In this document: in pieces, positions 3,701-59,605 of the stretch | Layout of the letters: each line of letters begins with the position of its first letter | Position numbering within the stretch: the first letter of the stretch is position 1 | Assembly (NCBI GenBank): GCA_964187785.1 | Contig: OZ076409.1 | Location: 51,152,001 to 51,212,000 of the forward strand | Origin: Amphiscolops sp. MND2022 | Lineage: Eukaryota | Length of the DNA stretch: 60,000 bases | Direction: 5' to 3' | Program-made: the position numbers and the translations under genes | The notes under the pieces: generated by a model | Database searches by the model: none | Seen by the model: only the letters and a program-made list of their open reading frames with translations | Told to the model about the DNA's origin: nothing

Positions 3701-4203
3701 GGCACCACGACAATTCGTACAAACGACATTTCGTATAATAGCCAAAAACCCGACATTTCGTACACGGACAATTGGTACAAAAATGAAACCGGACATTTCG
3801 TACAAAATTAATTTGAACAGATTTGCAAAATAGGTCTCAAACGACAGAATTACTAGCTTTCAGTGCTGTTACAGCCAACATGTATGGAACTTGATTCAAT
3901 TAAAGAGGTTAGCATATATGTTGTATGGCTGGGTCGCTTCGCTCCCTTCGCCAAGTAGCAACATTGAGGCATGGCCATATGGCACGTCGCTCCGCTTCGC
4001 TTCTCTCCTGCATTTAGGGCACTAGGGGTATGTGAACATAGCTGACTTATAATAATAAGTTGTATAATATAAATTGCACGAAATGTCGGGTTTCATTTCT
4101 GTACGAAATGTCTGGTTTCGCTTTTGTACGAAATGTCTGGTTTTGGTTTTTGTATGAGATGTCGTGTGTACGAAATGTCGTGTGTACTAATTGTCGCGCC
4201 CCC
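3701..4203. mobile_element. Mutator/MULE-like MITE, copy 2 (inverted relative to copy 1)
   Basis: Reverse-complement homologue of 1680..2140. 9-bp TSD AAACTGGTG at 3692-3700 and 4204-4212. Confidence 0.85.
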
Positions 4204-8310: not shown

Positions 8311-8706
8311 TTTTTAGTCGGCGCTTCATGAAGTGAAACGCGACTATTATAGTGACTTTTTTTCAATCCACACGAACTGACCAAAATAGTTCCTGAAAGT
8401 TCTACAAAATTTTATGGTCTCAAATTGAATCATTTGGCCAGCGAACTGAACCAAAAAGGTTTTTCCTTTTTCTGCGTAACATACCATGCCGGGAGAGACT
8501 AAAGGATCTGTCCCCCTTTCAGTTTTTTTTCGGCATTGTGAGACTTTTTTTCGAAAAGTTTTTCGCGTCAGTTCCAACGTTTGGGTTTTTCGTGAGTTTG
8601 ATACTCTTTTTGTGAGTTTGATACTTTGAGTTTTTTGACACTTTCATGTCCTTTTGCCATTTTTGAGCCTTAGATATGGCGCTGATTTATGCCGTTCCCG
8701 GCTTGT
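8311..8706 (-). mobile_element. DINE-1/HINE-like non-autonomous Helentron, family A (shortened copy)
   Basis: Ends TTTTAGTCGGCGCTTCATGAAGTGAAACGCGACT and ...CCGTTCCCGGCTTGTT. Homologous to 54140..54823. Confidence 0.65.
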
Positions 8707-38600: not shown

Positions 38601-41600
38601 GCCGTCAGTACCATCAGCCTGTATATCTTTTAATTGTTTCAGATGAAATCCTCTTTGTTCGTGTTGAAAGTCAAAGTACGGATAGTGATTCTATGTGCTT
38701 GAAAAGATGCAGAGTTATTGCAGAAGAATTGTCAGAAAGTGGGGATAGCAATATCAGAGATGCTGTTTTGATTGATGAAGGATCTACCATTTCTGTTAAG
38801 TTGAATGAGGTACTCTCTTACACTTGTAACGCCATGAATCCAATTCTCCAACAACCAGGCTTGGCTCTAAAGTGTGCTTTGACTGCCATCTGTCCGGCAG
38901 GTAGTGTAGATGGAAATTGGTCTAAAAACAGCATCGAAGCTCTTCAGAGAGTAACAGCTGATAATGAAATTTATGTGGACCCCAACCTGGAAGCGGCAGA
39001 TGCAAGCGATTCTTCAGAAGTCATATTTAGAGAACTGTATCATATTGACCCATCTAGTCCCAAAGAAGCAATTGTTCGCAACGGAACTGATTTTGTCCCG
39101 GTTTCTTTTTTTCTTAAACTCAATGGATTTGCTATTCCCAACAAAGTTATGAGAGCAAAACTAAATACTCCTTCCTTGGATAAAGCACCTGCTCTTGATA
39201 AACAGCAAGTGAAACACAACACTTCCTATCATAATTTATCTGTGCAACCCGAAGATGAAATGCTTTGCAGTCAAAGTACAACACCATTCTCTACTCTCTC
39301 ACCTACGAGTTCAGAGAAATCTGTTCCGAAAAGTGGTTCTTATAGTCTCAAACCCTGCGAAATGCTTTGGGTCGACGCACCTCCAACGACTGACAAACAG
39401 ACATCTGAACAATCACTTTCTAAAGCTATTTGGGTTAGCCCTAAACTGTCTCCGGAAGTTGATCGCGTCTGTCAAATGTCAACGGAAAACGCTAAGCGTT
39501 GTAAGAAAGGCGTTGATTTGGTTGAGAATAAGCCATCAGTTGTTGAAAAGGGTCAAGAGAAATGTCACGGAGTTTCTGAGAAGCATTCCCCCAATTCGAT
39601 AAACAGTGGTCTTGGTGCATCGTTCTCTGATTCTGATAGTGATGAAAATACAGCGCCTACTGTTTTATTCATGCCGAAAACCAAGGGTGTGTTAAAAACT
39701 CAGACGTCGAATAAATCTTGTATCACCTCTAACGCTAAAGCAAAAGATGTGGACTTTTTTGAACCCAATAGTTCCTTTATTGATGACCTCGAGCTAAATT
39801 CTGAACATCTGAAGTTGGATGAGAAAGCTGCTTCTTCCAAAAGTGTTGAAACAAAAATAGCAGCAAAAAATATGATCAAGTTTGAAACGGAAAGTAGCAT
39901 CTCCCCGGAACCTGTTCCCAAGACGGAGATACTGAAGCAAGTGCGGATGTGGGCACCATCCAAAACAGATGCCTGTCAATCAACCACAATAGAGAATACC
40001 ATTCATTTCGACCTCTCCCATCACGGGATCCCTGAATTTTCATCTCTTGATGAAGTAGGTGATAAACAGGTTAACCTACAAATACTGCCAAATGTTGTAT
40101 ACAAGGCGTGCATCATTCCAAGCAAATCTGTTTTCCCATTCCAATTCGAACAGTTTGATTCAGATGGCATTTCTCTTCGAGGTTGTTGCAAAGATTTTAA
40201 CCAGTTTTTAATTCATCGAATCAACAGTGAAATTGACGAGTTTTTGAGAGGCAAATACCCTGGGGGAGGTTATGATGAAAACGAACTTTACTCTGGAATG
40301 GCTGCGTGTGGCTTCTTCCGAGAAGATGGTCATTGGTACAGAGTCAGATTCCTGAAAAAAGACGGGGGAAAATTCCTGGTTAGTTGGATCCTTTTCTATG
40401 ATTCAGTCTTTTTTCACTTCGCGATTATTGTCTTGATAGCTTTTTTCTCTGATGTTCACTTTTTAGAGAAGATAGAACTTTATAATTACTTTTAATTTTT
40501 TGTTGCTGGAATATTATTAAAACGCGCACTGCCATATTTTCTCCGGACTCAACAAAAATTGTCTAGACAATATATATAATCTCTTCGCAGTTAGTCAATA
40601 TATCAAGAGGGTGACTGTTATTGGCATGAAACAAGCAAGTGTTCACTGATAAATTGTAAGAGATTGTACAGAGAGCTTTGCCTGCATTTAAAGAAGAATG
40701 CGGAAGATCATTTCCGCTGACTGGTAGTGTTTTCTTGAATGCAGCTTAAGTAATCAATAAGTAACAGCTTTTGGTCTAAATTTAGGATACTTTCAGTTGA
40801 AAAATTCAAAAATTGAAAATGTTGATTTTCAGCTATTCTTGAAAAAAGGACCGTGCGTACTGAAACCCATTTTTCATGTTGGGACAAATATGAAATAAGC
40901 CCGTTGTTAAAAAGAGGGCGAGTCGGAAACAGTTGAAGAGGGCGTCGTATACGCTGCAAGCTGCAGAGCCTCATTGCAGTGTCACTAAGGGTCTCATATA
41001 AATAAATATCGAAAACCTTGGTAAGTGGAGAAAAATTTACAAATTACTGCATTAATATCACATGGTTAAACATTGCTCGTTGTAAAATGGAATCTAGTAA
41101 ATAAATGCTCGTCAAGGGATACCCTGCGGTGGTGCCTTTAAGACAGTATTCCCTCTTCTACTATTGCACCGGTCACAAATCGTCTTTGTGAACGACGGCA
41201 CTCGCGGAGGTACAGAACGGAGCTTTTCAGTAGGGCAAATTGAAAACGTTATGGAGAAACCCTATTGGAATGGGAAAATTTTATTTCCGAAACTTTCTAT
41301 CAAATGGGTTGATCGCGAAATCTTTAAATGATAGATGGACTCTTTGAATTTTGTTTGCAATTTTTTTGAAGTTTCAGACATTTTAGTGATCTCTGAAGGG
41401 CGGCTTCAGGGAATGCCTTTACTCCGAGACAGTACAAAATTTCCTGATGAATTTTCTCGAAATTTTTAAATTCCAATTCAATCAAGTTTTTTTGATATGC
41501 TTCAAGCTATTTGAGTTGATCGGAAATTCGTGTTTTGCTTCATGGTCTTCAACGTTTTAATTTTCACTCAATTTTTAAAGGTCGGAAAAAATTTCAGACT

Positions 41601-44600
41601 AATCCAATTGTACCTTTTTTCTCACGTACCTTTTATTCTCCCGACCTTTCAGAAAATGTCTCAAAAACTTCATACGATTTTTTTGAATTTCGCACAGTCA
41701 TTTCACACCCAAAGGTGCTCCTGTATGTGCAATGGCATCAGAATGGTGTAAGTTTGGGTCTGAGAAACAGCCAGAGTTACGCCAAAAAAACGGCCAATTT
41801 TGACTTTTCTTTCTACACCATATAAGGGCTTAATATGTGCAATTCCATCAAAATAGTTTGACTGGTATTCCAGCTAGTCAGAAGAAAAAAGTCATAATCC
41901 GACTCCTTCACCGCACATGCGGCTCTGGTTTCAATAGTTGTTTCATTAGTGGTAGTATTTGTAGCAGTAGAAGACGATTGCATGAACAGAGGAATTATAG
42001 AAACTGGCTTCATTAAAGATTATGATGGAAACTGATTCATGCGCGATGAGATGAGCCAAATTACTTGATGAAAATTGAACAACTATGCAGCAAATTGAAG
42101 GATAGCATTTCCGGAGGAAAGAATCAATAAATTTTTTGATAACCGTCAGGGTTCAATCAAAAGCCAAGCATTCAGCATAATCAACTGGTTTGCAATTATA
42201 AATGATCGTGGTAAATTTTTCTTTCGGTTTGAATTTTCTGGTTTTAAGCATTTAGGAACAAGAATTTGAGCATCGAGGTTTTTGAGGCTTTGATTTTTGC
42301 ATCAGTGTAAACTCCACTTCAACTGCTATGTACCGAATTTTCCAGAGGTAAAGCATATCAACTTTATCCAGTTGATAGCACAGCGGCAGGATATTCAGAC
42401 AACAGAGTGCCTCTTTGTACTCATCGCCTGAAACAATACACGTTATGACTTTTTTGAAATCGTTCTAATTGCTTCAAATCAGTTATTGAGCGATGCCATA
42501 CTGGGGAGCAGTACAGTAATATAGGTAGAATCAAGGTCAAAATAGAGATGCTTCCTTTTTTCTTTTGAGGTGTTGAAGGGCCCATTGCGACACAAGAAGT
42601 TGAAAACTTTGTTGCAATTTGCCTTATGACATTAGCAAGGCATTTCAGGTCGAAAGAAGTTAAATCTCCAAGGTCCACCTTTTCTTGATTAGGGTTTATC
42701 AAGGCACCATTGATAGTAAGAGGTGCAAGGCAGTTGAATTGAAACGTTTACACTTGTTTGGGTGAAACTGTGAACCATTTGCACTTGCCCACCGTGGCAA
42801 TCGGTTTCAGTTTGGATCAAAGAAGTTTCTTTTGATGAAAAGATTTTCAAATCGTCTCAATACAGAAACTAGTCTGTGCTTTGAAGATTATCGGTTATGT
42901 GGTATGTCGTTGAAAAAGAAAATGGGCCCCAAGACACTCCCCTGTGGAACACCAGACCATTTTATTCGACATGGCTGAGTTGATTTTTACGCTTTGGATA
43001 CGTCCAGACTTGTAAAAATCAATGAGAGACTGAAAATTTTCATCAGAACCAGAGGCGGTAAGTTTTCTCAGACGTCCATCACAAGGAGTCGAAATCGTTC
43101 ATTATGTCAAGATAGATGGCTAGACATACGGTAAAGGTTAACATCATGTACAAGGTGCAATGTGTTGCTCCGTTTTCAGTCGGCGCTTTTCTTGACAAAA
43201 GGGCCCGACTATTACAGTGGCGAGTCTTTTTTCGTCAGACCACAGGGCTCACCTTGTATGTACCACGTTTTAGTACAGACATTTCTTGCTTTAGGGGGAA
43301 CACAACGGTCGTGAGTTCGAGTCTCAGCTCCAGTCAGAAACTTTTTCGTGCATTTGCGAAACCGGACGAGACTGAACAGTCCCCACCTTTCAATATTTTT
43401 TTCAGCACCATGAGACGTTTTTTTGAAAGTTGTTTCATGTCTCCAAATGGTCCCCCTTCAATTTTTTGCCGCAAACTGGAGTTTCAAAGGTTCTCCCCTT
43501 TTCTTTTCTCGGCACTTTGAGACTTTCAAAATTTTTCGTCTCAATTTAGGAAGTTCTCAAAATATGCGTACAAATAATTTTTCAATACTATCCGAACGTG
43601 TGTTGTGATATCCGGGGTAAAGGGCTCTATCCGATTTTTTGACGTTATATCCTAGCTATATTGCCTTTTAATACGGAGGAGGCGGAGGTTGGTTTTTTCT
43701 GCGTTTTCCATGAAAACATCCTACGCATATTTTTGGAACTGCGCTTTTTGAGCCTTGGATATACCGCCGGCTTTGGACGTTCCCGTCTTGCTTCATGAAG
43801 CCATGCTGTTTCGATGAAATCTTTTTTTGAACTTGAAGTGAATTAAAGAAGACGTTCGAATAAAACAGGATGTTAGCTCAATATCGATAATTTTCAATAT
43901 CACTTGGTTATCCCGAATTATGTAAAGCTCTCACATAACGAAGTTTCCACTCGGAGGACCAAGTGGAGCTACTTTTGACGCTTTGTAAGAGAACACAGAC
44001 AGCTGGTGCTAAAACACTGGAAAAAGATTTTAATACAAAATAAGCTATATTGTCTGGTCCTGTTGCCAAAGAATCATCACAATCATTCAAACTAAGTTCG
44101 ATATCAGTGACAGAAAAATCAAAGTCATCAAAGAAAATGTCGCATTTTGGAGATTGTTCGATAAGCACAAGTCGTTTAGGAGTGAAATATGAACCAAAAT
44201 TCATATTCTTTTGGATTTTGTAGGTTGAAATTTTCTACGAGTATTAACTTATACAATCCAAATGATTCGTCCAATGACTTCAACAGATTGAAAAGTTTAC
44301 TACCTTCGGATTGAGTCAAGTGCAGCGGGTTTCTGAGAATCTGTTGGTACCTGTTGGGAAGTAGCAAGAAATCGCAAGCCCATTTTTATTATACCGAGTC
44401 AATTTGATAGCTTCGTGAAGTTTTTGGAAACCGGAAAATGAAAATTTTCGAAAACAATTTCTAGGTGCTTTTTGAATTTTTCTTCTAGTGCATGATTTTG
44501 GTCTCAATTATCTCAAATGAACTTTACAAAGCTTCGCACCAGATAATCCCTGAACGGCCCAAATCGTCGCCCGCTCCAATTTATTTTTCATAAATTTTAT

Positions 44601-47600
44601 ATTCAAGGTCCAATCTAATTTATATATTTATTGAGGCTTCGAGCGAGCGAAGCGAAGCGACGAAGTCTCTATTGTTCCGCGTTTACTAGCGTTTTGGTTT
44701 TTTTTTCGTGTGACATACCCTCTGTATTTGTATTAATTGAAGGCTATTTTCTCAGAGCCTATTTTTCCGCGACCATCCAAACTTTCCAAAAAGAAACGCA
44801 ACTTGATGCTCTTTCTAACCGTGTAAAAACTTTTCGAAAATTTTCCACCGGCGCTATTTTATTAGCTTCGAAAGCGCGAAATTTTCGAAAATTTTTAGGG
44901 TTTTTGTCGATTTTGCTATTTTTCTTTTCGCAAACCACAGCGAATTGGCCCGATGTAGGTACTAACCGACGTAAAACGATGTTTTCTTTAATTTGGTGAA
45001 AGTTTTTTTATCCTAGAATCATTGGGCTTTGCGAAAATGACCATTAAAAATAGGAAAAGTTTTCGGTTTTTTTGCGTAAAAAATTTCTCAACCTATTTTC
45101 AAGTAGCAATCAGTTCTAATCCAAGCAGTGGTGTTTCTACTCGATAACAGGTCTGCTTAGCTGCCCAAAGTTAGAAATTGGAAAGTCACAACGTTTACGT
45201 CGGACAGATAGAGACAAAAAAGTTTTCAAATTTTTTGAATTTTTGATAATTGCTCTATTCAATTTTGTAAAAGTTTTGGCCTATTTTCTCGGAGCCTAAT
45301 ACTTCGAGACCATCCAAAAACTCAACAAATTGTTGGAACTGAATTTGTTGGTGAAGATTTAAATGTTGTTGGATTTTCGGGCAGTTCATTGTATATTATA
45401 CAAATTGTGCTTTACTACGAATCTTGAAATAAATGAATATTTGATCCTTCAATTTTTAAATATACATTTTCCAAACTAATCTTAGGAAGGAGTGAAATAG
45501 ACGAAGTTACCGGATCGGTCTTGTAAAAATGCATAGATTGCGGTCTGATTACCCCTAGTAACTCTCCTACTGTCTTATTTGCACGGCTGTTGTTAAAAAT
45601 GCTGACTTCATCCTTGGAAGGTTTTTATTTATTTATACTGCTAGTAGAAAATGTAAAAATGCTCGAAGACCTATCGGCAATGTACATTGAATCATATACT
45701 CCATAATTGCTCATTGATTTGCTTTGTCTCATGCCTGTAAAATTTTCGGTGAATAGTTTTTTGTCCATTTTTGATGTCGGAAACCAAAGTTTTTTTCAGA
45801 CCTCTCGATGTATGGGTTTTCGAGAGTGAGATCATATTGGACCACTGGAGTACATACTCACACCGTTAGTTATTGATGATGTGGTTGTTTGAAGCGTAAA
45901 ACCGCGAAATTTCCGTTCTTAACGTATTCTATCCAGTGAATATCTGCACAGAAGGTATTATGCATTACCGCAATATTCCTGAGAGATTTGATGTCATATG
46001 CAACGATTAAATCAAGACAACACTAAGTTATATTCACACCTCGCTGTGCAATGATATTCAACTACGTTGTATTGAAAACAAAAATGATTTCGGATCTTTT
46101 CGTGATTTTGCCCCATTCGCAAATTTTAACAGGTTATTCATCCTCTGGAATACGTTTCCAACGGTGCCCACTGATGCTGGAAGGTTGTTTGATGCACAAT
46201 TCAGCTAATTTTTAGAACTGAAAGTATACTTGCAAGTGATGGCACATATCAACCGTCCTATTGATAACTAGGGCAGCCCTTCCTTTTATATAGTGGTAAA
46301 GTCCGAAAAAGTTAAGCTTCATAGGATTAATACCCGCAATTCTTTTCAATTTCATTGTATTTTGAGCATTCTCGTGCCGTATATAACCTTAGCTATTCGT
46401 CATAGCTAATAACTTGGTAATATGGTTCAAATGCACATGATGATAGTCAATTATGGCTGCGGGACCTGTCGCTCGAAGCCGTGCGCAAATTCCTTTGCGC
46501 CTATGTTTTATTTAATTTATATATATCCCACTCTGTTGATAAGTGCAAATTGTATCAATTGTACAGTGCCGAATAATACCCCAAGGGATGCCCATGAAAC
46601 TCGAAAACAGCGTTTTTCCCTACTCGAAACATCAAAAACACAATATTTTCGAAAATAATTTTTAGTGCCGAAAAAGCTTCAAGCTTGAAAAGCACTTTTT
46701 TCAAGCCAAAAACATTTATGAAAGTGAAGGGGGTACCCTTCCACCAAATTAAAATTTCCTAAAATGTCGCCCAGTGCCAAAAAACAATCGGTATTTTCCA
46801 CAATTATTGAGGAAACTATCAGGACCAAAAATGAAGAGATGAGATCACCGTTAAGTCTCGGAAAACTGTTTTTCTTTACACGGAAAATCAAAAAAAAAAT
46901 GTTTCGTTATTTGAAATGACTCTGACTGTTGCATGAAAATGTTTCAGATTTTTATGCTGGGAGAAAGTCCAGTTTGTTTACTGTGTTTCGGCCCAAGGCT
47001 CCAAATGTGATAATTTCCTCTATTTTCTGCACTCTGCGATTTATCTCAATTTTTTAAATGTATTTGTATTGAAATTATAATTCCTTTTTTAAAAAAAATT
47101 CAGAACTTCCGTCATTTATTCGCTTCCAATGCTAGGTTCTGTATGATTTTGTAGTACGTGTTTGATTCTGTATGTTCTTGTTGACATGCTGAAAATGTTG
47201 AATATGTTTAGGTCAGATTTGTGGACTTCGGGAACGATGTTCGATGCAACCCGGAAGATTTCTTTCCTGTACCAGCTTTCATAGAAGTGCCACAACTCTG
47301 CATGGAATGCGTTCTTGAAGGAGTTCGATTCACAGAGCGCAATTTAGACGCAAAGTCACATACATGTTTCGCCGCAAAATTGAAAGAAGCTATTTTGAAT
47401 GAGAATCATCCAGTTTTTGTGTCAATGAAGGAAATGCCTACGGAAGAAACTGATCAGAGAAAATCCTTGCCGATTTCTGTCTATTATGAAGGCAGGGAAT
47501 TGCGTCATTACTTGGTTCATCAAGGATATTTACAATGGGAGATTGATACTGATCATGATTTTCTCCAGACTGATGCTGATAAAGAAATGTATGAGACGTT

Positions 47601-48171
47601 GGTCAAGTGTGTGATTCCCTTCAATATCAAATTTCTACAAAGTCTTATCGGTGAGACGATTGAAGTGCAAGTGACTCATCAGGTGTCATCTAATTTCATA
47701 ATGGGCCGAGTCATCAAGCCAAACCCAAGCGCAGTTAATTTCGAGAAATTCATTTCGTCTATCAACTACTCGCAGCCTATTGTTACATCAAGATTGCGCG
47801 CTACAGATGAAACTGTCGGTCAATTGGTATACGTCTACAATCGTGAGTTACACCCCCATGTATGGAACAGGGGCCAAGTTATTGGATATGTTCCCAGGTG
47901 TCCTGTTAATGACCTGCCATTCAAATACACTATTCATCTCATCGACTATGGGTACTCTGAAAATCTTCCTGTGTCTATGTCAATCACTGATGTCCATAAT
48001 ATCGAAAAGTTCGTTGAATCACCGGCTGAAGCGGTTCCCTTTGTTTTCTCTTCTGCGCCCGAAAATGAGAAGAGTACCCCCGTAACCTCGGCAAAGTTCG
48101 AGAAAGGACAATTGATTCAAATTCAAGTTGAATCTGTCGGCAAAATTGTGCAATGCAGTATCAAGAACTGA
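14501..48171 (+). CDS. RNF17: RING/B-box/multi-Tudor protein (RNF17/TDRD4/Qin-like), whole gene span; 7 coding exons, about 1910 aa
   Basis: Exons 14501-14695, 14836-15079, 21892-23068, 36525-37699, 38093-38338, 38643-40378 and 47212-48171 all have GT-AG junctions with continuous phase and sum to 5733 nt. Domains: C3HC4 RING, two B-boxes, coiled coil, five extended Tudor domains. Confidence 0.85.
14836..15079 (+). CDS. RNF17: RNF17-like exon 2 (RING completion)
   Basis: TTTTAG acceptor. SIEENYCRVCW supplies the last CxxC of the RING. G|GTAGAG donor. Confidence 0.75.
16190..19820. repeat. Tandem satellite, 41-42-bp unit, roughly 85-90 diverged copies
   Basis: Consensus about TTCGAAATAATTTGACAGCTCCAGAAATCGAGGGAGCACAC, repeated continuously, with higher-order duplications. 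Confidence 0.95.
19821..20086 (+). mobile_element. Short DINE-1/HINE-like element, family B
   Basis: Starts AACAAG. Subterminal inverted repeat TTATTTCCCGCC / GGCGGAAAATAA with an adjacent short hairpin. Confidence 0.5.
20316..20645 (+). mobile_element. DINE-1/HINE-like family A copy
   Basis: AACAAGACGGGAACGTCCCAAGTCGGCGCC start and GGCGCCGACTAAAA end. Confidence 0.65.
21892..23068 (+). CDS. RNF17: RNF17-like exon 3 (two B-boxes, coiled coil, start of Tudor 1)
   Basis: CLKC...CDHC...LCENCFNYMH...H; CTVH...CLDCKSDVCSDC...HQGH; KITHLKSPKDFFF...LARFNIDNR, then GTAAGC donor. Confidence 0.9.
23587..32504 (-). mobile_element. Gypsy/Ty3 LTR retrotransposon, degenerate and internally rearranged
   Basis: TG...CA LTRs at 32020-32504 (5') and 23587-23792 (3', internally deleted). 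PBS TGGCGCAGTCAG next to the 5' LTR, PPT GAGGGGAA, TSD CTGGC/CTGCC. Fragments of gag, protease (IIDSGSPVT), RNase H (TDAS..GLGATL) and integrase (QLDFIGP, IDRYSKW). Confidence 0.88.
28128..29412 (+). mobile_element. Tc1/mariner transposon nested in the Gypsy element; frameshifted transposase 28318..29284
   Basis: Perfect TIRs TACCCCGCGTCAAAAAAATGTC and TA TSD. Motifs GSGRPK, WDNVLITDE, QQDGARPH, WPVNSPDLSP. Confidence 0.92.
32628..33173 (+). mobile_element. DINE-1/HINE-like family A copy
   Basis: AACAAGAGAAACGTCCAAAGTCGGCGC start, GCGCGGACTAAAA end, internal CACAGTGCCGAAAAA repeats. Confidence 0.6.
33700..35740 (-). mobile_element. Degenerate CRE-like (RLE-type) non-LTR retrotransposon
   Basis: Frameshifted RT motifs GPSGLDA, LIAIDKNPGVRPIGIG, TTQGDPLAMAMY, WYADD. 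C-terminal GASCWLNALP...FRDGIAL...CPCG...HALDC...RHDAIRD. Confidence 0.8.
36525..37699 (+). CDS. RNF17: RNF17-like exon 4 (Tudor 1 core and Tudor 2)
   Basis: RWYRAKI...VKFIDYGN; VTEVVSPSNFY...CLAQF...YYRANV...VFFIDFGN. Splice phases match. Confidence 0.92.
38093..38338 (+). CDS. RNF17: RNF17-like exon 5 (start of Tudor 3)
   Basis: TTTAG acceptor, GTGAGG donor. VLVSHVVDPWNLYVR. Confidence 0.85.
38643..40378 (+). CDS. RNF17: RNF17-like exon 6 (Tudor 3, long linker, start of Tudor 4)
   Basis: TTTCAG acceptor. LIDEG, ALKCAL...W, S/K-rich linker, ACGFFREDGHWYRVRF, then GTTAGT donor. Confidence 0.9.
41580..41930 (+). repeat. Dispersed repeat (family C), homologous to 55160..55795
   Basis: Shared CACCCAAAGG...GTGCAATGGCATCA and terminal ACTCCTT.ACCGCA.ATGCGGCTCTGGTTT hairpin. 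Confidence 0.6.
42060..44480 (-). mobile_element. Degenerate CR1/Jockey-like LINE, interrupted by a HINE copy (about 43175..43790)
   Basis: Fragments LATGPDNI, GVPQGSVLGP and ILLYCSPVW...LERFQ, with many stops and frameshifts. Confidence 0.75.
44631..45690 (+). mobile_element. Probable non-autonomous Helentron-like element, family D
   Basis: Start GAGGCTTCGAGCGAGCGAAGCGAAGCGACGAAGTCTC (self-complementary). Subterminal inverse GCTCGAAGACCT at 45661. Confidence 0.4.
47212..48171 (+). CDS. RNF17: RNF17-like exon 7 (Tudor 4 core, Tudor 5, stop)
   Basis: TTTAG acceptor. VRFVDFGN...; HVWNRGQV...IHLIDYG. TGA ends at 48171. Confidence 0.9.
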   Translation, partial: VRFVDFGNDVRCNPEDFFPVPAFIEVPQLCMECVLEGVRFTERNLDAKSHTCFAAKLKEAILNENHPVFVSMKEMPTEETDQRKSLPISVYYEGRELRHYLVHQGYLQWEIDTDHDFLQTDADKEMYETLVKCVIPFNIKFLQSLIGETIEVQVTHQVSSNFIMGRVIKPNPSAVNFEKFISSINYSQPIVTSRLRATDETVGQLVYVYNRELHPHVWNRGQVIGYVPRCPVNDLPFKYTIHLIDYGYSENLPVSMSITDVHNIEKFVESPAEAVPFVFSSAPENEKSTPVTSAKFEKGQLIQIQVESVGKIVQCSIKN

Positions 48172-48320
48172 TTTTTGTTTGTTTGTTGGCCAAAAGCCAC
48201 TTCATTGGTGAAATGCTTGAAAAGACTGCGAAAGATAATTTGAAAGGTATTTATGACTTTGTTGAACAATAGTTTATTTTTATGAAAGCAATTCTTTCCG
48301 AAAGAGAATTTAGACCTATA

Positions 48321-49899
48321 CAGTAGAGTTTGCTTAATAGCAAGTCGCAGGGGGTCCTCGTAAATCTTGCTAATAAAAAAACTTTCTAATATGCAAACAT
48401 GAATTAAATTCCCTTAAATATTGGAAAAATAAGCATTTAATGTAGTTTGATGCATATTCTCTTGTCGCTGAATAGAAATAAAGTCTTCAATGTTCATCAG
48501 ATTGTTCATGTGATGCCAGCTACCTTCTTGGTTGGCAAGAAAGCGCCGTATTAACCCAACTGCATTCAATGCATCTTGAGCGCGCACGGGGCATTCTTCA
48601 TTTTCCTCTGTTTCTTCATCGCTGTCAATGGTCAAAACAGTATCTCCAGCTGGAGTTTGAAGTTGGGGCATCTTTTCGTCGTTTCCATCCGTTGCACAAT
48701 CGTTATCTGCATCAATATATTCCACCCAATCCTGTTCGCTTAAACTTGGATAATTTGGCAAAATTTGACCCTCGACAATAAAACATTCCGAGCCAGCATT
48801 CTCGACATCTTCGGTAACCGTTTCATTAACGAATCCCACGTGCTTAAAGCAATTTCGAACTGTGTCGGATTTCACCTCTTCCCAACTTCGTTGCAGCAAA
48901 ATAAGTCCCTCCAGCAAGTCAATGTTCATGACAGTTCTTTCATCCATCGCGTTTAGCTGTTTCGTGACGAGCTTTTTGGAATCTCATGGGGATGCGCAGA
49001 ACAGTTGTCCAAAATAAGAGCAATTCTTCGTCTTTCCCGTTTAAATTTGACCTCAAGGTGCTTAATGTAGTCAACAAATATAGAAGCCGTCATCCATGCT
49101 TTTTTGTTGGCGAAATATTGGATAGGAGGGGAGCTTCTTCGGAAACAACGTGGCTGCTGAAACTTGCCAATGGTGAGAAGTGGCAGTTTTTCTCCGCCCG
49201 CAGATGCTCCAACCAAAACGGAAATTCGCTCTTTTGAACGTTTTCCGCCTGAAAATTTCTGCCCTTTTACCATGTGCCCACTGACATAACATTTGCCCAC
49301 TGAGCCCAGGCAATCCAGAAGCCGTACTAACAACCCAATTATAAAGTGCCTGATCAACATCTGCAAAGCCAATATTGCGGTTTCTTTTTTGCTTTGGGTT
49401 TTTCTCACCCGTTTCAAATTTTTTTGAAATGGATTGGCGCTCTTTTTTAATTCTAGAAACGGTTGACTCATTGATCCCATATTTTTTGGCCACATCGGCC
49501 TGCTTCGCGCCCCCGTTCAGCTCTTTAACAATATCATATTTCTTACACAATGAAAGTTCCGTGCGTGGACGTTTGGTAGACATATTAACCAATCTGAAGA
49601 TATCAACAGATTCAATTATTGAATAAAATAACAAGACTCCTTTGCATGTGCATGTAAACGCATTGTGCCTATTTCTCAGAAATGTCACAGAATTTCACCT
49701 TCCATCTCGCTATTAAGCGAATATTTCTGAGAAAAGTGACTCCCGGGACATGAAAAATCCTTGCTAATAAAAAATCTTGCTATTAAGAAAATTGCTAATA
49801 GGCAAACAATCTCACACCGTATACCGCTCGGGAGGATTTTTTACTTGCTAATATATGAATCTTGCTATTAGAGCAATTGCTAATAAGCGAACTCCACTG
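48321..49899 (-). mobile_element. pogo/Tigger DNA transposon, internally deleted, copy 2 (1579 bp)
   Basis: Reverse complement of 6541..8119: same length, identical ORF translations, TA TSD. Confidence 0.93.
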
Positions 49900-50879
49900 T
49901 AGTAAAGAAAAACAGTGGCATGGTATAACTCTCTTCAAAAAAGGAAAAATTCTCTGATGAAGCATTTTAATTACACTTCCACTTAATCAAAATCTAAGAG
50001 CAGGCAATCCGATGAAAACATTTCCAAGAATGGTAGTTTCCTGATTAATTATATTAAGGTCATTTTCTCGAAGACTATCGATTCACGTCCAATCAGCTTT
50101 TGATTGACGTTAGAATAAAATTGGAAGACAGATTGATTCAGAAAGTCCGATTTTGTCGCCACTTTTTTTGTAAGGTGAAAATTGCGAGTTCATTTCAAGA
50201 ACCAGCTATTGAAATTTCTGCATAAAACCGCTGAATTATGAATCGTGTCGTAATTATTCAATTAAAATCAGAACCCAACAGGGAAATCGAATTCGTCCGA
50301 AATTGAAGATCCGCTTAGAACTTTGAACCGTAGATTTGGTTCAATAATACAAACACAGGGCTTTCCGTCCGTTAAAAATTGATACCAGAGTATTAGGGAA
50401 GTACCTAATGTCGTGAGCTACTAAACTAATCTCTGTCCATCCAGCTGATATTCGTTACACGGCACAAAAATAATTTTCAAGCTTAGAGCACACCAACCTT
50501 AACGGAATAGTCTGGCCAAATCTAGAATATGCACGAGGGTGCAAAACGCCCCGGAATTAGGACGGCCGTCATACTGCCAATGAAATAATAGATAATTAAC
50601 TTACTTAAATTGAAAAAAAAAACAAATTGAGGTAAAAGGATGATTCTTAAGTCTTTTTGTTGCGTTCTCAAAATCGACCATTCTTTTACGTTTTCAAAAT
50701 GGGCCATGTTGTTACTTTTTGGAAATCGGTCATTTTGTGGTGCATCCTTCAAAATTTTACTTACCTTGGACACTTGCGTCTCTAGTGGTTGGCTGGGTCC
50801 TTGCTGTGAACCCTGCAATCTCGGTTCTTCGAGCTTCCACAGTTCAAATGTTTACGCCTTTTCGTTACCTACAAGTTTT

Positions 50880-51787
50880 TAAATTTTGGCAAAGTCTCTT
50901 TCGGCCATCTACATACTACATTTGAACTGTAAAAAGTGCTAAGGAGTCCCCTTCGACACTGACGCAACCCATACGGGATTTAACACATCGGATATAACGT
51001 TTTTTTTTCTGGAGAATTTTTAATGGTATCTACGTTATACGAAGTTGTTTGCGTTTTACTAAGAGGAGGAGGGGTTTCAATCGAAGTGATTAGATTTTTA
51101 GCCCCCATATGATTTTTACGGGAACAAAACACTTGGAGAGCATAGAGGGTCACCTTAGGTTTTTTTCGGCACAATGCGACTTATCGAAGATTTTAAAAAT
51201 TGAATTGAAATTTTGAAATTCCTTTCTACACAATTTTTGTTTTTTCAATGCTTTCTGCAGTGAAAACTTTTCCGAGTCCTAAGATTTACTTCATTGATTA
51301 GTTTTTGGTCCTTTTGAACTGAAGAGACTTTTCTCAATAATTGTCGAAAAAACCTACGGTTTTCTTCCGCCAGTATTTTGATCAAAGCGTACCCCTTCAT
51401 TTGTTGTCGAGTTCAAAAGAGTGTCGCGAACTTGAGGGGTCTTTTGAGTTTTCGGCACTTTTTTCAGAAAAAAAATTGGAATGAATTTTTTTCAATTGTT
51501 TTTTCTGATGTTTCGAGTTACGGAAAACGCGGTTTTCGAGTCTTATGGTTACCCTTTTGGTATATTTTTTGTACTGTAAATTTGATGGAAGTTTTCTCAA
51601 TAGTGTCCTCTAAAGCTCCATTTTCGGCACTGAGTTGCTTCCACTGTCTTATGCGTATCCGTTCGGGTAATTTTTTTGGCACTGGAAGATTGATGAAATT
51701 TTAACAATAGCGTCCTTTTGCATATTTAAAAAACATTCAATTTATTGAACCTTAGCGGGGCGCCGATTTGGGCCGTTCCCGGCTTGT
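50880..51787 (-). mobile_element. DINE-1/HINE-like family A variant
   Basis: Ends GGGGCGCCGATTTGGGCCGTTCCCGGCTTGTT. Body matches the interrupted copy in the MoaC intron (53975-54110 and 56652-56770). Confidence 0.55.
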
Positions 51788-53029
51788 TTCAAACTAAAAT
51801 GAGTTGATTTTAACCATGACTCTAATCGATGATTATAAATTATAATCATTTGATTATGATTTGCCAACCCTGTTATTACCATCCAGAACTCAATTTTCAA
51901 ATCACCAAGAAATGGGTACGTGGTTAATTGTTATGTTCCTTCCAACCTTGTAGAAGTGCAAAACTTCCATGCGAATGTCTCAATTCCGTCTCTCAGAAGA
52001 CAGCCTATTTGGATGCTTTTGTACAAACAATATTTGACTTCTTGTAGAGCTGTGACTGAAATTGTGCAATCCTTGCATCTTTATTCGCTACCGGGCAAAT
52101 TGTGGCACGTACAAGGATGTTCGGTTCTAATAGGAAAAGGAAAAATTGTGAAGGAAGCATTTTTGGAGCTGTCTATTTAGAATGATAGTTTTAAAAAGTA
52201 GCAAAGTTTTTAAAATCAAGAATTCTGATCAAGATTGGAATTAGATCTATAATTGGAACCTGTAGATACATTTCTTTAAATGATCGCACATTTTTCGAAG
52301 TTTCTATTGAATAGGAAATAGAATATGCTCCTAGAATATTTTCGACCTCATATATGCCAACACTGGTATTGATGATTATTTCACTTCACCCTCTGTATGT
52401 ATTTGAAAATTTGAAAAGGTTATACGGAAAGCTCTTCTCAAATCTTCAAGTCTACTTTCGCCAGAGAGCGTCTCTTACTCAGGAAATTTGCGCTTTTGAT
52501 AGTTCGAGAAACCACTATCGACTATCGGAGCAAATGTATCACGAATTTTTTCTCGTTAAGCCAGAGTCCACAGAAGGATATCATAGTATCTTTCTTCATC
52601 ATGGCATAGGTTTTAATTCTTTAGTAATTTTTTTTAATGTCCAAGTTATTCATCTCAGCTGACCTCTATCTGGACCGTTTCAAATGAAGTCTAGACTACT
52701 TTAAGAACTCTAGAAATGGTAGTTAAACATTTATCCATCGACATACATTCCAACATTAACAGTTATAACGTTAACTATCTATTCTCGGAAGTTTTATAAG
52801 CAAGTAAATTAACCTTTTTCAACATTCGATTTTCCTGTACCAACAGGAGTCGATTGTGCTTTGTACAGCAGTTGAAATTTTCGCAACTCCATTTTCTCGA
52901 TGATAAATATTTTTTACTTGCTGTGTCTCTGCAACTCAAATGCGCTGATCAGTCGCTGTAATGTCAAGTTTTGGTGGATTTCGAACGCGAATGTTTTCAG
53001 GCTTGCAAGCTTTTCAGGTGTTATGAATA

Positions 53030-53454
53030 ATGAAATTGAGACCTGTAAGGATATCGCAAGTTCTGCCTGCATCTTATCTAACAGTATCATCTGAGTACTG
53101 CTTTCAACGACCCTCTGTGCACATCAGGAGTCAGCAGACTCGTTTCTTACATGCTCAAGTTTCAAACCAGTTGACCCATATAGATAATCATGGAAATGTA
53201 AATTTTGTGAATATTAGTGAAAAGAAGCCTTGTCGAAGAGAAGCAGTAGCAGAAGCCACTGTGCAATTGTCTGATGACGTTTTTGAGATGGTGCTCCGAA
53301 ATGAACTTATTAAAGGTGACTTGGAGAGTACAATCAAACTGGCTGGAATCACAGGCTGTAAAAAGACTAGTTCTTTGATACCTCTTTGCCATAATATCAT
53401 TCTTGATCATGTTAATGTTGATGTGGTTTACGAACCAAAGTTTTCTGCAGTTCA
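53030..53454 (+). CDS. MOCS1: Cyclic pyranopterin monophosphate synthase (MoaC/MOCS1B-type), exon 1
   Basis: LTHID...ISEK...REAVAEA...KGD...AGITGCKKTSSLIPLCH. Basic/Ser-rich leader. CA|GTGAGT donor. Confidence 0.9.
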
Positions 53455-54139
53455 GTGAGTACATTAATGTTCCAAAGTATCTTTATGCCCTAAAAAACCT
53501 TATTCTCGAAAATCAGTCAAAAAGACTATCAGTTAAAAGTTACATTATTTGAAAATTTTAACAATGCAAATGTCATTACCGCTTTCTGTTCAGATAACAG
53601 AGCTTAAAATCACAAATTTAAATTCTTTCAGTCTAGATTATTAAGTGTGCACTTTCGCAAAATTCAAACATTAAAGATGCTTGTTTTTGAGAAATCTGTT
53701 GGGATGCGAAAGATTTACTTCCAGCAATTTTTTCTAGCTCTTCGTCTCGAAAACTAATTGGGAAAGAATGGATGAACTTTTTGAATTTTATGTGCAAAAA
53801 GCTTTACAGTTGCAGAAATATTTGTGAGCCCCGAAGTGGCTAATTTTAGTAATATCATCTCGTAGTTGATTTTTAGTCGGCGCTCTTTTTAAAGAGCGAC
53901 TATAGTCATGGCTTTTCATCAGTTTTTTTTCGATACACCTGACTTGTCCGAAATAGTTCTATCAAAAGTTCTTCAATTTTGGCAAAGTCCCTTTTGACCA
54001 TCTACATCCTACATTTGAGAAAGAAGTCCTTTAAAGAAGTCCCCTTCAGCAATAACGCAACCCATACCGGATTTAACACAAACCGGATATAATGTTTCTC
54101 GGAGAATGTTTCAATGTTACAAAAAGGTCCCCCATTCGT

Positions 54140-54823
54140 TTTTAGTCGGCGCTTCATGAAGTGAAACGCGACTATTATAGTGACTTTTTTTTTCTATCCA
54201 CACGAACTGACCAAAATAGTTCTACAAAAGTTCTACAAAATATTATTGCATCAAAATGCACTATTTGGTCTAGCGAACTGAACCAAAAAGGTTTTTCCTG
54301 TTTTTCCGCGTAACATACCATACCGGGCGAGACCAAAGACTCCCCCCTTTCATTTTTTTCGGCACTGCGAGACATTTTTTTTCGGAATTTTTTTCTTCGG
54401 AATTTTTTTTCCTCAAAGGGTCCCCCTGCATTTTTTTGATGTTTTGCGACAGAATGGATGTTGAAAAATCCCAAAGGGTCCCCCCTTTCAGTTTTTTTCG
54501 GCATTGTGAGATTTTTTCCCGAAAATGAAAATTTTTGTTTTCTTCAATTTTTTCATGTTTTGCGACAGAATGGATGTTGAAAAACCTCAAAGGGCCCCCC
54601 CTTTCAGTTTTTCGGCATTGTGAGACGTTAGCGCGCCAGGGGCTCGCGCCAGCGGGCCCCGGCGCGCCACTCGGTCCATTTTTTTAGTATGTAATTTTTT
54701 CAAAAAAAAATTCGAAAAATTTTCGATTTTCGACTACTGTAAACGAATACTTGACACTTGGAAGTCTTTTTGCTATTTTTGAGCCTTGGATATGGCGCCG
54801 ACTTGGGCCGGTCCCGGCTTGTT
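54140..54823 (-). mobile_element. DINE-1/HINE-like family A, young full-length copy
   Basis: Both termini intact in T-rich flanks. Near-identical to 58841..59506. Confidence 0.75.
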
Positions 54824-55159
54824 TTTTGGTATAGTGAGACTTTATTCTTTCAATTCAACAGCTGCTTTATTGCCAATACTTTATCATACTTTGTTATTGA
54901 TTTGAATGTTTTGAGCTACGTATGTTTTGATACTTATCCTTATCCTTAGAAGTAACGTTTGTTTATTGAAGCCCTCCATCTTTATTGTAAACAAAGCGTT
55001 TTGCGAAAGTCGAGGGCCTTCTTATAGTTTTTCGGCGCCGTGGGATTTACCGAAGATATTTTTTTGAAAAAAAATCGAAACTTTTCTTTTTTCCCATAGA
55101 TTTTTAGGAGTCGAAAAAAATTTTCGACTACTTATGCAATCGTGCTGTTTTTTTTGTTT

Positions 55160-55795
55160 TTTTTTCTCCCGACCTTTTCATGAAAATTTTAAATTTCTCA
55201 AAACCTGTCCATAAGATTTTCACGAAATTTTGCACAGTCATTCTACACCCAAAGGGGCCCCTGCGTGTGCAAAGGCATCAAAATCGTATGGCTGGGATGT
55301 GAGAAACATAGCCAAAATTAGCCCAAAAATGGCCAAAAAAACCGCCATTTTTCGACTTTTTTCGATTTTCTCAAAAACTGTCCATACGATTCGAACGAAA
55401 TTCTCTACACCATATTAGAGTCCTATATGTGCAATGGCATCAAAATCGTATGGCTGGGATGTGAGAAACATAGCCAAAATTAGCCCAAAAATGGCCAAAA
55501 AACAGCCATTTTTCGACTTTCTTCGATTTTCGCAAAAAACTGTCCATACGATTCGAACGAAATTTTCTACAGTCATTCTACACCATATTATGGTCCTTTA
55601 TGTGCAATTTTATTAAATTCGTATGGCTGCGATGTGAGAAACATAGCCAAATTTAGCCCAAAAATGGCCAAAAAAACAGTCAATTTTCGATTTTTTCGAT
55701 TTTCTCACAAACTGTTCATACGATTCGAACGAAAGCGAGTCAGAAGGAAAAAAGACTTAAGCCGACTCCTTTACCGCATATGCGGCTCTGGTTTT
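55160..55795 (+). repeat. Family C repeat with about three tandem 160-175-bp subunits
   Basis: GTATGGCTGGGATGTGAGAAACATAGCCAAAATTAGCCCAAAAATGGCC occurs three times. Terminal CCGCATATGCGG palindrome. Confidence 0.7.
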
Positions 55796-55832
55796 CTAAG
55801 TTTTCTTCAATCCCTTTTCGGAATCCTAACTA

Positions 55833-56651
55833 CACTATGGTATGAAAAAGATAGGTACCCCTGGAGAATTTGTTAAAAAGCATTTAATAAGCATGTTCTA
55901 GCAATTTATAAGCATTTTGTGGCCATCAAAACGTACTGCTCCCCAAAACATAAGCGATCTTTTGTCTCTTAACTTTTTTTCAAGTTTTCTACATTGTACC
56001 TTGTTCCATTTTTCTTAAAACTCTCCTGATCCCATTACTAGTTAGTTTTACACGAGTTTCGTTGGTAAAGACCACGTTCTGCCAGTAATTGAAAGGCCTA
56101 TATTCAATCAATTTGCACTATTTTTGACGGTTAATCTTGTGGTCGCGCTTCAAATTTAACTTTTGAGCTGCAATCCGGCTTCTGATTCCGTGTTTCCTTA
56201 AAATCTTTCGAACTATCTGCCTCGAAATGGATTCTTTGCTCGAGAATGAGTTAAAGTGTACTCTCGCTTTCTCCAAATTCACCAAGTCATTCTTTAAAAC
56301 ATCGGTGACGAGCTTCTTTTCGTCTTTTTCTGTAAGATTTTTCGGCCTGCCAGTAGGTATCTTAGGGATGTAAGAAGGTCTTTTTTTGTAACGTAAGTAG
56401 GCATTTGAAACTATATTTTGATTTAATTTTGACCTTCTCTTGTATCTCTCGGTGAGAAAATCTAACACTTTTTAATGTAACACTTTGGCAAACAAAATGA
56501 GAGTCAAGCCATTTTCGATTTCCATGAGAAGAAAAACGTTTGAACTGTAAGCTTTGAACTGTTTGAACAATGTGAACTTCCGTTTTGAAACTGAGGCTGA
56601 ACTAAAAAGTTGTTCAAAACTTGAGGTACCTATCTTTTTAATACCGTAATG
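55833..56651 (-). mobile_element. Internally deleted Tc1/mariner element
   Basis: TA TSD. 27-bp TIRs CACTATGGTATGAAAAAGATAGGTACC / CATTACGGTATTAAAAAGATAGGTACC. N-terminal transposase relic (TGRPK...ISRQIVRKILRKHG). Confidence 0.85.
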
Positions 56652-57131
56652 TATCCGTTCGCGTCTTTTTCGGCACTAGATAAAAAATTTTAACAATAGT
56701 GTCCTTTGCATATATATTAAGAAACTTGCTTTTTTGAAACTTGAGCGGGGCGCCGACTTGGGCCGGTCCTGATTTGGCATAAATAGCATTCACATACTTT
56801 TTGGTAATAGGCGCGGCTTGTTTAAATTTTATTTGAACCTATGTGCTAAAAGTGATCAGTTTATTCATCAAGTTGAGTACCATAGATATTGCGTGAAAAA
56901 ATTCTCCAGTAAATTTTTTTAAATAGCTTTTTCAGAATTGAATTCAGTTTGAAATTGATTTTTCACTTTGGGAGGCATTACATTTAGAATCGAGAACTTG
57001 GAATTAGAGCGCGAGGAATATCCCATTTCTGTTAGTTTAATGTGAGTTTTTTTGGCTTTTTTCTGAAAATGTTGTGCATAATAACAGCATCGGAAAATTT
57101 TTTGTTTTTATGTTAGTGTTTTTTGTTGCAG

Positions 57132-57366
57132 GATATCAGTGCGAGTGGTGTCTGAAGGAAAAACTGGTGTGGAAATGGAAGCATTAACAGGGGCATCTGT
57201 GGCTGCTTTGACTCTGTACGACATGTGTAAATCATACGGACATGAAATTCTAATATCCCAAATACGTCTGGTTTCCAAGTTGAAGCAGGAACCTCGCACA
57301 ATATCTTCTTTGCTCAATCGTCTGAAATTGCTGTCTTTTACCAAAACGCTTTTCCGTAACGAATAG
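57132..57366 (+). CDS. MOCS1: MoaC/MOCS1B-type, exon 2
   Basis: TTGCAG acceptor, phase 2 match. [25 protein letters not shown] signature. Confidence 0.9.
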
Positions 57367-57525: not shown

Positions 57526-59605
57526 TAGACATGAGACGATCCACCATTTTTAAATTCAATTCGTTTCGATTTTTGAGTTTTTTCGATTCGATTCGATCCA
57601 ATTCGATTCGCTGAAAAAAAAAACAAATAACCATTCAAAAGTTTATTTTCAAAAACTAAAGCATCAAAAACGAAAACAAAAAATCAAAACTTAAAGCACT
57701 ATCATAAAATTAGTGCATGTTTTCATGAAGAAACACTAAGTTTTTTACACTCTCGGATGACAAAGTTTCCCTTTTGTGTGACACTATGTACCCACTGGCA
57801 CTCCAGACTCTCACTTGGTGTTGCTGCTCCCGGAATTCCAAGAATGATGCGCGCATATTTTGCAAGTGTTGGGTATGTGGCACCTTTGTTTTTCCAAAAA
57901 GAAAGTGGGTTATCTGTTCCTTTTTCTAGTTTTTTCAAATAAGCCGTCATCTCATCGCGGACACTCAACAATGTTTTCGTTGGTTTGATCTGTTGTCAAC
58001 GTTGCGCTCACAAAAGGAGCCCAAAAGTCATCCTCATCGGTGTCTCCCGGAATTACCTCAGGACTTGGCTCACGGACAAATTCGAGAAATTGGTTGTCTC
58101 CTGGAAGGTCCAAAACTTGGAGAAGAGAAACGGTACTGTCGACCGATAACTTCATCAAAACATTTTTAAAACGAGCATCAAGCAAAGTAGCAACTTTATG
58201 AATGTCCGGATTTATCAGCCCATTGGGAAAGCGTTTTTCAAGCTCTTCGAGAGCTATTCCGGCCATTTTTTTCTCAAGATCTAATTCACTAACTTGATAA
58301 GTCACCATTTTTGATTTAACGTTAAAAAGGATTGGAATTATAGCAGACAACGTGCATTACTTTTGCCCACCCACTATGTCTGTTTTCAAGAAATTCTAAA
58401 AATATTCAAAATGTGCTTACCTTGTATTGTTTTTTGTGGTGTCTTTCAAGATGTTTTCGCAAATTTGTATTACCAGTTGGGCAAATGACAGTATCATCAC
58501 AAATTGTGCACTCTCTTGTATTCTGATCAGATGTATATCGATGATAATCGTGAACTAAGCTTCGCGTTGTTACCATGTTAAACAGTAAGTGCAATTTTAC
58601 ATACAATAAACTGAAATATAAACTGAAATGTTCTAAACCAATGATTTAATTGGATATGATTTAAAACAGAAAATGACTTATCATTACCATAGTTAAAGAT
58701 ACATACTGTAAGTTAGAATCATCTTTGAAGTCAAAAGATTTAAATCCCTTATGGCTCAGTTGGTTAAACAAAATGGCTCAGTTGGAAATGTAACTTTAAA
58801 CCTTTTTTGCGCGGGTTCGAATCGCGGTGGTACCACCTATTTTTAGTCGGCGCTTCATGAAGTGAAACGCGACTATTATAGTGACTTTTTTTTCTATCCA
58901 CACGAACTGACCAAAATAGTTCTACAAAAGTTCTACAAAATATTATTGCATCAAAATGCACTATTTGGTCTAGCGAACTGAACCAAAAAGGTTCTTCCTG
59001 TTTTTCCGCGTAACATACCATACCGGGCGAGACCAAAGACTCCCCCCTTTCATTTTTTTCGGCACTGCGAGACTTTTTTCGAAAAAAAATTTCCCCAAAG
59101 GGTCCCCCCTGAATTTTTTTTGATGTTTTGCGACCGAATGGATGTTGAAAAATCCCAAAGGGTCCCCCCTTTCAGTTTTTTTTCGGCATTGTGAGATTTG
59201 TTCCCGAAAATGAAAATTTTTGTTTTCAATTTTTTCATGTTTTACGACAGAATGGATGTTGAAAAACCTCAAAGGGTCCCCTTTCAGTTTTTCGGCATTG
59301 TGAGACGTTAGCGCGCCAGGGGCTCGCGCCAGCGTGCCCCGGCGCGCCACTCGGTCCATTTTTTTGAGTATGCAATTTTTTCGAAAAATTTTTTTTCAAA
59401 AAGTTTCGATTTTCGAGTACTGTAAAAGAGTACTTGACACCTGGAAGTCTTTTTGCTATTTTTGAGCCTTGGATATGGCGCCGACTTGGGCCGGTCCCGG
59501 CTTGTTTATTTTAAAAATGCTTTCTGGATCGAATTTCGATTCGATTCGATTTTTCAAAATTTCGATTTAATTCGATACTCGATTCGATTTTTTCTAATGT
59601 CTCTA
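57526..59605 (-). mobile_element. hAT DNA transposon, internally deleted
   Basis: 8-bp TSD CCTCAACG at 57518-57525 and 59606-59613. TAGA...TCTA termini and subterminal ATTCG repeats. BED finger (CTIC...TNLRKHLERHH), ATLLDARFK, dimerisation domain (PLSFWK...YPTLAKYARIILGIPGAATPSE). Confidence 0.9.
58841..59506 (-). mobile_element. DINE-1/HINE-like family A, young copy nested in the hAT element
   Basis: Near-identical to 54140..54823. Confidence 0.75.

Follow-up and report, generated by a model that had tools for sequence, protein, structure and literature searches.

Antisense insertions of Tirant in host 3′ UTRs are described as potent piRNA sources, provided that the host transcript includes the insertion: silencing was lost with a poly(A) signal placed upstream, a cryptic signal inside the antisense fragment cut piRNA output, and the effect is reported to be independent of the identity of the host gene, the precedents being the Fs(2)Ket and cactus 3′ UTRs and including an internally deleted copy (PMC13226689). 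Related cases are KoRV-A in the 3′ UTR of koala MAP4K4, as presented in a commentary (PMC12264075), read-through clusters in mammals (PMC11615739) and antisense P elements in the lncRNA CR43651, which are linked to piRNA-like silencing (PMC12338743). U-rich selection has also been described (10.64898/2026.02.07.704324). RNF17 and Qin are themselves germline piRNA factors, and mouse RNF17 restrains ping-pong on TE-bearing UTRs, such that in the account given, TE-bearing 3′ UTRs of genes of the Rnf168 type become ping-pong substrates when RNF17 is lost (PMC4511215). In the open-access literature, where part of the search gave mostly unrelated papers, none of the listed papers dealt with a transposon inserted into RNF17/Qin's own 3′ UTR.

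The locus described here lies in a 60-kb stretch of DNA, from an intron-bearing animal, that was analysed as a whole (the window). As in the Tirant and KoRV-A models, a young antisense element sits in a probable host 3′ UTR, probably with active targets elsewhere, and the copy is internally deleted and apparently segregating. Those insertions are retroviral, with demonstrated chimeric transcripts and piRNAs, occupy minor long UTR isoforms and act irrespective of the host gene, as far as these sources describe them (PMC13226689, PMC12264075), whereas the element here is a cut-and-paste DNA transposon, known from its DNA sequence, that sits 149 nt past the stop and ahead of any signal. CR43651 is similar in that a DNA transposon is antisense within a transcribed unit, with piRNA-like silencing there, but it is described as a non-coding host and a recurrent adaptive hot spot shown by experiment (PMC12338743), whereas here we see a single insertion without sign of selection. 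The Rnf168-type genes offer a further likeness, as the mRNA of a germline gene could become a piRNA target through a TE fragment in its 3′ UTR; in that description the mRNAs are those of other genes (PMC4511215), whereas here it would be RNF17's own.

The RNF17/Qin-like gene and its surroundings

The host gene occupies 14501–48171 on the plus strand as a seven-exon model of ~1,913 aa that is open throughout and comprises a RING-like region, two B-boxes and about five Tudor domains. Pfam searches on single exons recovered the B-boxes and two of the Tudor domains; further Tudor-like stretches gave weak tblastn and profile matches only, and the RING-like region is a Cys/His pattern across exons 1–2 with no Pfam hit. 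RNF17 proteins were at the top of a BLASTP comparison among 120 fetched proteins, the best match being a mollusc RNF17-like protein (aa 22–896 against 5–872, spanning the RING region to the second Tudor domain), and a profile built from 11 RNF17/Qin-type proteins matched the model colinearly (E 4e-95). The layout agrees with that described for Qin/Kumo and RNF17, in which an N-terminal E3-ligase region with RING and B-boxes precedes five Tudor domains (PMC4511215), with the RING-like pattern lacking Pfam support. Summed phmmer scores favour unnamed multi-Tudor proteins over RNF17 proteins; judged by BLASTP, the 11-protein profile and the B-box/Tudor layout, the host is very probably RNF17/Qin, as the preliminary description of this DNA had named it.

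The last coding exon (47212–48171, plus strand) is an open frame with a Pfam TUDOR match that contains the end of one Tudor domain, then the last Tudor-like domain and the stop codon TGA (48169–48171), and its phase-0 join to the exon at 38643–40378 completes a Tudor motif. All four relatives aligned over this exon (58%, 31%, 29% and 29% identity) end no more than two residues from the host's stop column. Because these four closest relatives end at the matching column, we take 48171 to be the genuine end of the coding sequence, and an extra RNF17 exon beyond it was ruled out on the same evidence.

Several further observations concern the introns of this gene. The strongest-looking splice sites of intron 2 (donor 15085, acceptor before 21812) produce a one-base frameshift near 21880, and the open model requires weaker sites, 15079 to 21883 or 21892; this oddity (15079–15084 and 21812–21892) could reflect an unusual acceptor, a missing micro-exon, a sequence error or a broken allele. 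Intron 2 also contains a long degenerate tandem array at 16183–19824 (unit roughly 33–36 bp) with many spurious ORFs. Intron 3 holds an antisense, A-poor block (24000–32100, minus strand) of decayed, internally duplicated, LTR-retrotransposon-like pol/integrase fragments, in which a Tc1-like element is nested (28300–29300, plus strand), both labelled by eye.

The window is rich in mobile elements generally. Decayed non-LTR, Tc1-like and hAT-like fragments, also labelled by eye, lie at 33700–35500, 42300–44400, 56100–56500 and 57600–58400; an inverted repeat pair (1704–2140 and 3701–4137; 440 bp, 95% identical, 1.6 kb apart) occupies introns of the minus-strand gene, and a dispersed repeat family of 86–92% identity has several copies in the window (8311–8564, 54139–54827 and 58840–59511). 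The next plus-strand coding sequence downstream of the RNF17-like gene is an Arf-like GTPase exon, possibly decayed, at 51860–52180 (Pfam Arf E 5e-4, below the curated cut-off; ARL5 E 5e-5 in PDB sequences). The 5′ part of this gene was not found by search; in the Arf-like sequence (50590–50850 and 51860–52180, plus strand) the NKxD motif is altered and repeat fragments separate a 5′ part read by eye from the 3′ exon, which is confirmed, and the whole is possibly a decayed copy. It is followed by a MoaC-like gene (molybdenum cofactor biosynthesis; 53027–57366, plus strand) whose introns are packed with repeats. Splice-like motifs had suggested a convergent minus-strand gene at 50,400–53,000, the 3′ end of which would overlap the element and give dsRNA; the stretch showed no coding potential and no Pfam match, and this gene was rejected.

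A non-autonomous pogo-superfamily element and its relatives

The element in the 3′ UTR (copy B) occupies 48321–49899 on the minus strand, a length of 1,579 bp with TA on both sides (48319–48320 and directly after 49899) and Pfam CENP-B_N and DDE_1 pieces. Its first base lies at offset 150 from the stop codon (149 nt between), and its transposase remnants run on the minus strand against a plus-strand host gene, which bears out the distance and the antisense orientation first reported; the orientation is a 50:50 matter by chance. The terminal inverted repeats are 23 bp long, at 48321–48343 (3′ TIR, minus strand, CAGT start, 20/23 matching the 5′ TIR) and 49877–49899 (5′ TIR, minus strand), and a short subterminal repeat is present at both ends. 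The broken transposase ORF (48414–49583, minus strand) has lost residues about 100–186 and 287–320 of a 507-aa protein and carries two frameshifts, and copy B is not autonomous. A short local repeat at the first deletion junction (repeat D8) looks like templated filler. Because the first and third of the three catalytic Asp residues were lost with the deletions, copy B is predicted to depend on intact copies for its movement. Other searches around the element were negative: folding of the UTR–element junction region was no better than that of shuffles (z −0.58), Rfam gave no match in the 60-kb window, metagenome contigs gave no match to the unique left flank of copy B and no confirmed locus for the transposase alignment, and prokaryote genomes and viral contigs gave no match to the 3′ TIR.

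A search with the middle piece of the copy B transposase led to an intact 507-aa transposase (P0122) that is identical to the window copy over residues 187–286, 321–507 and the first 99 residues; on this 100% identity, we infer that intact P0122-like transposases belong to the genome of the same species. The P0122 cluster has seven members on eight contigs, five of the seven being full length, with no more than one or two residue differences, and the family includes at least four different internal-deletion forms. Because full-length, near-identical members occur with several internal-deletion forms, as in young cut-and-paste families, the family is very young and probably active.

Membership of the pogo superfamily is defined by a TA target-site duplication, TIRs, CENP-B_N/HTH_Tnp_Tc5 and DDE_1 domains and a DD29-59D triad. 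Both window copies have TA..TA and 23-bp TIRs, and P0122 has all three domains in Pfam with the catalytic triad DD31D, the window copy keeping pieces only. DD31D is compatible with both Tigger and pogoR ranges, and 18 of 27 relatives are DD30D (five gave no motif). The informative names among 42 hits were TIGD4-like (two), TIGD6-like (one) and an unnumbered TIGD (one), with none for TIGD1/2/5/7. TIGD4/6 are described as derived from pogoR (PMC7386202), and Tigger has been called polyphyletic (PMC7325037); a strict Tigger (Gao 2020) groups with Tigger1/TIGD2/5/7/JRK and not with TIGD3/4/6, the assignment here being by hit names and triad. Because the hits are TIGD4/6-like, hence pogoR-derived, and Tigger is polyphyletic, we lean towards "pogo-superfamily, pogoR-like" as the safer name. 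The element shares with pogoR and TIGD4-TIGD6-like elements, as described in these sources, a TA target and short TIRs starting CAG (PMC7386202, PMC7325037), together with CENP-B_N, HTH_Tnp_Tc5 and DDE_1, DD31D with DD30D relatives and TIGD4-like and TIGD6-like nearest names. It differs from them in that the family appears to be unnamed, with next relatives 57–72% identical over parts of the DDE piece, and in that the window copy is non-autonomous. In the original label "young Tigger", the age stands, as remnants match the intact transposase and all 1,579 bases are identical in a second copy; the hit names do not favour Tigger in the strict sense.

This second copy (copy A; 6541–8119, plus strand, with its own TA..TA) matches copy B at 1,579/1,579 bases and lies in an intron of a divergently transcribed minus-strand coiled-coil gene, antisense to that gene. 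Copies A and B are inverted relative to each other and flank the whole RNF17-like gene. With their 5′ ends outward, they bracket a 43-kb segment in which this gene lies entire, along with the 5′ part of the divergently transcribed neighbour; such a pair is a substrate for inversion or alternative transposition, and this haplotype shows no sign of an inversion. A composite transposon with RNF17 as its cargo was considered and set aside: the outer flanks of the two copies have no sequence in common, and TA targets can decide little here. Family proteins have at most 17 contig occurrences in the collection that we searched, and the middle piece spanning both deletion junctions is found on one contig, these copy numbers being lower bounds since they come from gene calls on contigs. 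Local hopping is described as a known trait of Tc1/mariner and P elements (PMC2874221). Because two identical copies of a rare form lie within 40 kb, the pair suggests a local hop from or to copy A, and such proximity would account for where copy B landed with no need for selection.

Two RNF17 exon ORFs, and likewise a MoaC-like exon beyond the insertion, each occur on two contigs (the longest 230,876 bp). A third RNF17 exon ORF is matched exactly by a 58,787-bp contig and with differences at 3/600 residues by the 230,876-bp contig, so that the collection holds two haplotypes of the RNF17 locus. None of the element proteins has either contig as its longest listed contig, and among proteins of the window's double-deletion form only P0176 (two contigs) is on a second contig that is not listed. 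No more than one of the two locus contigs thus shows a called element piece, which hints that the insertion segregates; the hint is indirect, as gene callers miss ORFs and the second contig is assumed to be common to each exon. Exact look-ups of the last RNF17 exon (three starts) and of three exons of the minus-strand gene gave no match in the collection.

Poly(A) signals at the RNF17 3′ end

The proximal 3′ UTR (48172–48320, plus strand; 149 nt including the TA target, 38% U) has no recognisable poly(A) hexamer: a plus-strand scan found neither AATAAA nor ATTAAA nor any of 12 further variants, and the first AATAAA after the stop is at 48372, inside copy B, in agreement with the preliminary description. 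This absence is at chance level. Both AATAAA and ATTAAA are missing from 86.9% of the 149-nt plus-strand stretches of the window (step 10; Poisson estimate 0.86), and in 53% none of the 12 scanned variants occurs. At 48372 the hexamer arises incidentally, where the element's subterminal repeat (family D1; 48364–48385, plus strand) runs into an A-tract, and the repeat motif gives a second AATAAA at 49766.

The criterion for a TE-derived poly(A) site is cleavage 10–30 nt past the hexamer with a downstream U/GU element. The downstream U+G fraction is 0.39 at 48372, with 98 of the 109 AATAAA sites in the window at least as high, and 0.61 at both 48477 and 50114, a value reached by 10 of the 109; this score is a crude proxy based on vertebrate and fly rules, which may not be those of this organism. 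The AATAAA at 48477–48482 (plus strand) has the best downstream U/G context among the element's six canonical hexamers. Copy B carries five AATAAA and one ATTAAA on its host-sense strand, against 2.6 expected (six are reached in 49 of 1,000 simulations), and no AATAAA and two ATTAAA on its own sense strand. Beyond the element, an AGTAAA variant (49901–49906, plus strand) begins at the A of the target TA and is A-rich downstream, and an AATAAA at 50114–50119 (plus strand) is followed by a U/G-rich tract with a U7 run. The latter would be 362 nt past the stop in the empty allele, before the Arf-like exon, and we infer it to be the best candidate for the native poly(A) signal of RNF17.

Because the context at 48372 is weak and a better native candidate lies beyond the element, copy B more likely interrupted a UTR having its own signal than supplied a missing one. 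The earlier claim that the element supplies the first poly(A) signal, read as a gain, is supported neither by this comparison nor by the chance-level absence of hexamers upstream. Copy B is probably inside the native 3′ UTR, which makes altered 3′-end processing likely. DNA-transposon ends, those of Tigger1 among them, have been described as a source of adopted poly(A) sites (PMC2553571). As in the MER33 and Tigger1 examples, an AATAAA lies here in a pogo-type terminal region within the 3′-most exon; those sites are EST-supported in ancient fixed copies, in that description, whereas this one is a predicted site of weak context in a brand-new copy. Hexamers may be poor predictors of 3′ ends in this organism, because neither of the two further gene ends looked at on the plus strand (MoaC-like, 634 nt; Arf-like, 720 nt) has AATAAA or ATTAAA after the stop; this count leaves out the minus-strand stretch after 765, where another exon follows.

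Fate of the filled allele

The observed anatomy of copy B, its identity with copy A, the intact partner transposase and the gene end lead us to regard as the probable explanation an ordinary insertion, very recent and probably segregating, by which the 3′ end of RNF17 is reshaped. Copy B, which is non-autonomous, would derive by deletion from a pogo-superfamily family (pogoR/TIGD4-6-like, DD31D) that is active now or was so until very recently; mobilised in trans by intact copies, it would have landed at a TA 149 nt into the RNF17/Qin 3′ UTR, in a local hop that probably linked it, in one direction or the other, with the identical copy 40 kb away. The insertion would have pushed the likely native AATAAA at 50114 1.6 kb downstream and placed six canonical hexamers before it. 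Most filled-allele transcripts would probably end at the element's proximal hexamers (48372–48777, with 48477 in the best context), and the mRNA would carry roughly 75–480 nt of antisense element, with some longer read-through. Such an insertion would be young, probably segregating and near-neutral or mildly deleterious, and its piRNA-gene host would most likely be incidental; even 200–500 nt of antisense element could feed piRNAs, which tempers "incidental".

The point of cleavage would decide how much of the element is retained: about 76 nt after 48372, 181 nt (88 of them ORF) after 48477 and 481 nt after 48777, with antisense cover of the full transposase ORF requiring read-through to 49622 or later. 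Supplying a poly(A) signal and acting as a piRNA trap would conflict, because cleavage after 48372 keeps none of the ORF. A functional genic trap, in which much of the RNF17 transcript would read through to 49622–50140 and carry as much as 1,170 nt of sequence complementary to the transposase ORF, with the piRNAs silencing the family in trans, is for this reason among others unlikely. The setting has much in common with the precedents of Tirant (PMC13226689), KoRV-A in MAP4K4 (PMC12264075) and the P elements in CR43651 (PMC12338743): the orientation is antisense in a probable 3′ UTR, intact and near-identical transposases on other contigs provide targets, several internal hexamers of copy B have weak context, and an RNF17-like host, by analogy with the germline piRNA factors RNF17/Qin (PMC4511215), should be expressed in the right, germline, cells. 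Against this, six canonical hexamers lie on the host strand, and poly(A) signals are what curbed the Tirant trap in the account of PMC13226689. U-rich selection would give little help, because the antisense strand of copy B has 31.5% U against 28.9% in the host CDS. The sequence predicts partial inclusion of copy B in the host mRNA at most; a trap of partial effect is possible.

Alternatively, the native mRNA could end at a non-canonical site within the U-rich 149 nt, leaving the element intergenic and the transcript unaffected. The 38% U of this stretch, the two other plus-strand gene ends without canonical hexamers and the short region to the next coding sequence are compatible with such an end; the lack of any scanned hexamer variant in 48172–48320 and the well-formed AATAAA, accompanied by a U-rich tract, that the empty allele would have 362 nt past the stop count against it, and we consider it quite improbable. 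Feedback on RNF17 is speculative, its rationale being that mouse RNF17 is described as restraining ping-pong on TE-bearing UTRs (PMC4511215), and the special feedback role proposed in the preliminary description finds no support; published 3′ UTR traps do not depend on the host gene. A self-limiting allele segregating with the empty one and open to direct comparison with it, in which germline read-through would yield piRNAs against the active family and the chimeric mRNA would be consumed or sliced, with the dose of a ping-pong regulator falling as transposon activity rises, is very doubtful. That assembly or polishing falsely produced one of the two copies, or made them perfectly identical, is suggested by 100% identity over 1,579 bp and by a called element piece on at most one of the two other locus contigs, but is extremely improbable given that both copies end cleanly in TA..TA, lie in unique flanks that differ and are oppositely oriented, that the other 14 listed repeat pairs of ≥150 bp are 81–95% identical, which argues against general homogenisation of repeats, and that the double-deletion form is also found on another contig.

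An ordinary recent insertion, the reading we prefer, makes this locus as it stands one more young 3′ UTR insertion. What appears new is a double-deletion derivative of an intact 507-aa transposase with an identical copy 40 kb away and TIGD4/6-like relatives. Its value would be that of a possible natural experiment, combining an active DNA-transposon family that has intact copies, a host gene of the germline and, probably, alleles with and without the insertion, in which the private deletion junctions of the derivative would mark small RNAs from this form. Such an experiment could test whether a pogo element in a non-model animal can act as the kind of 3′ UTR trap demonstrated for retroviral elements, and whether antisense-strand cryptic poly(A) signals restrain it.
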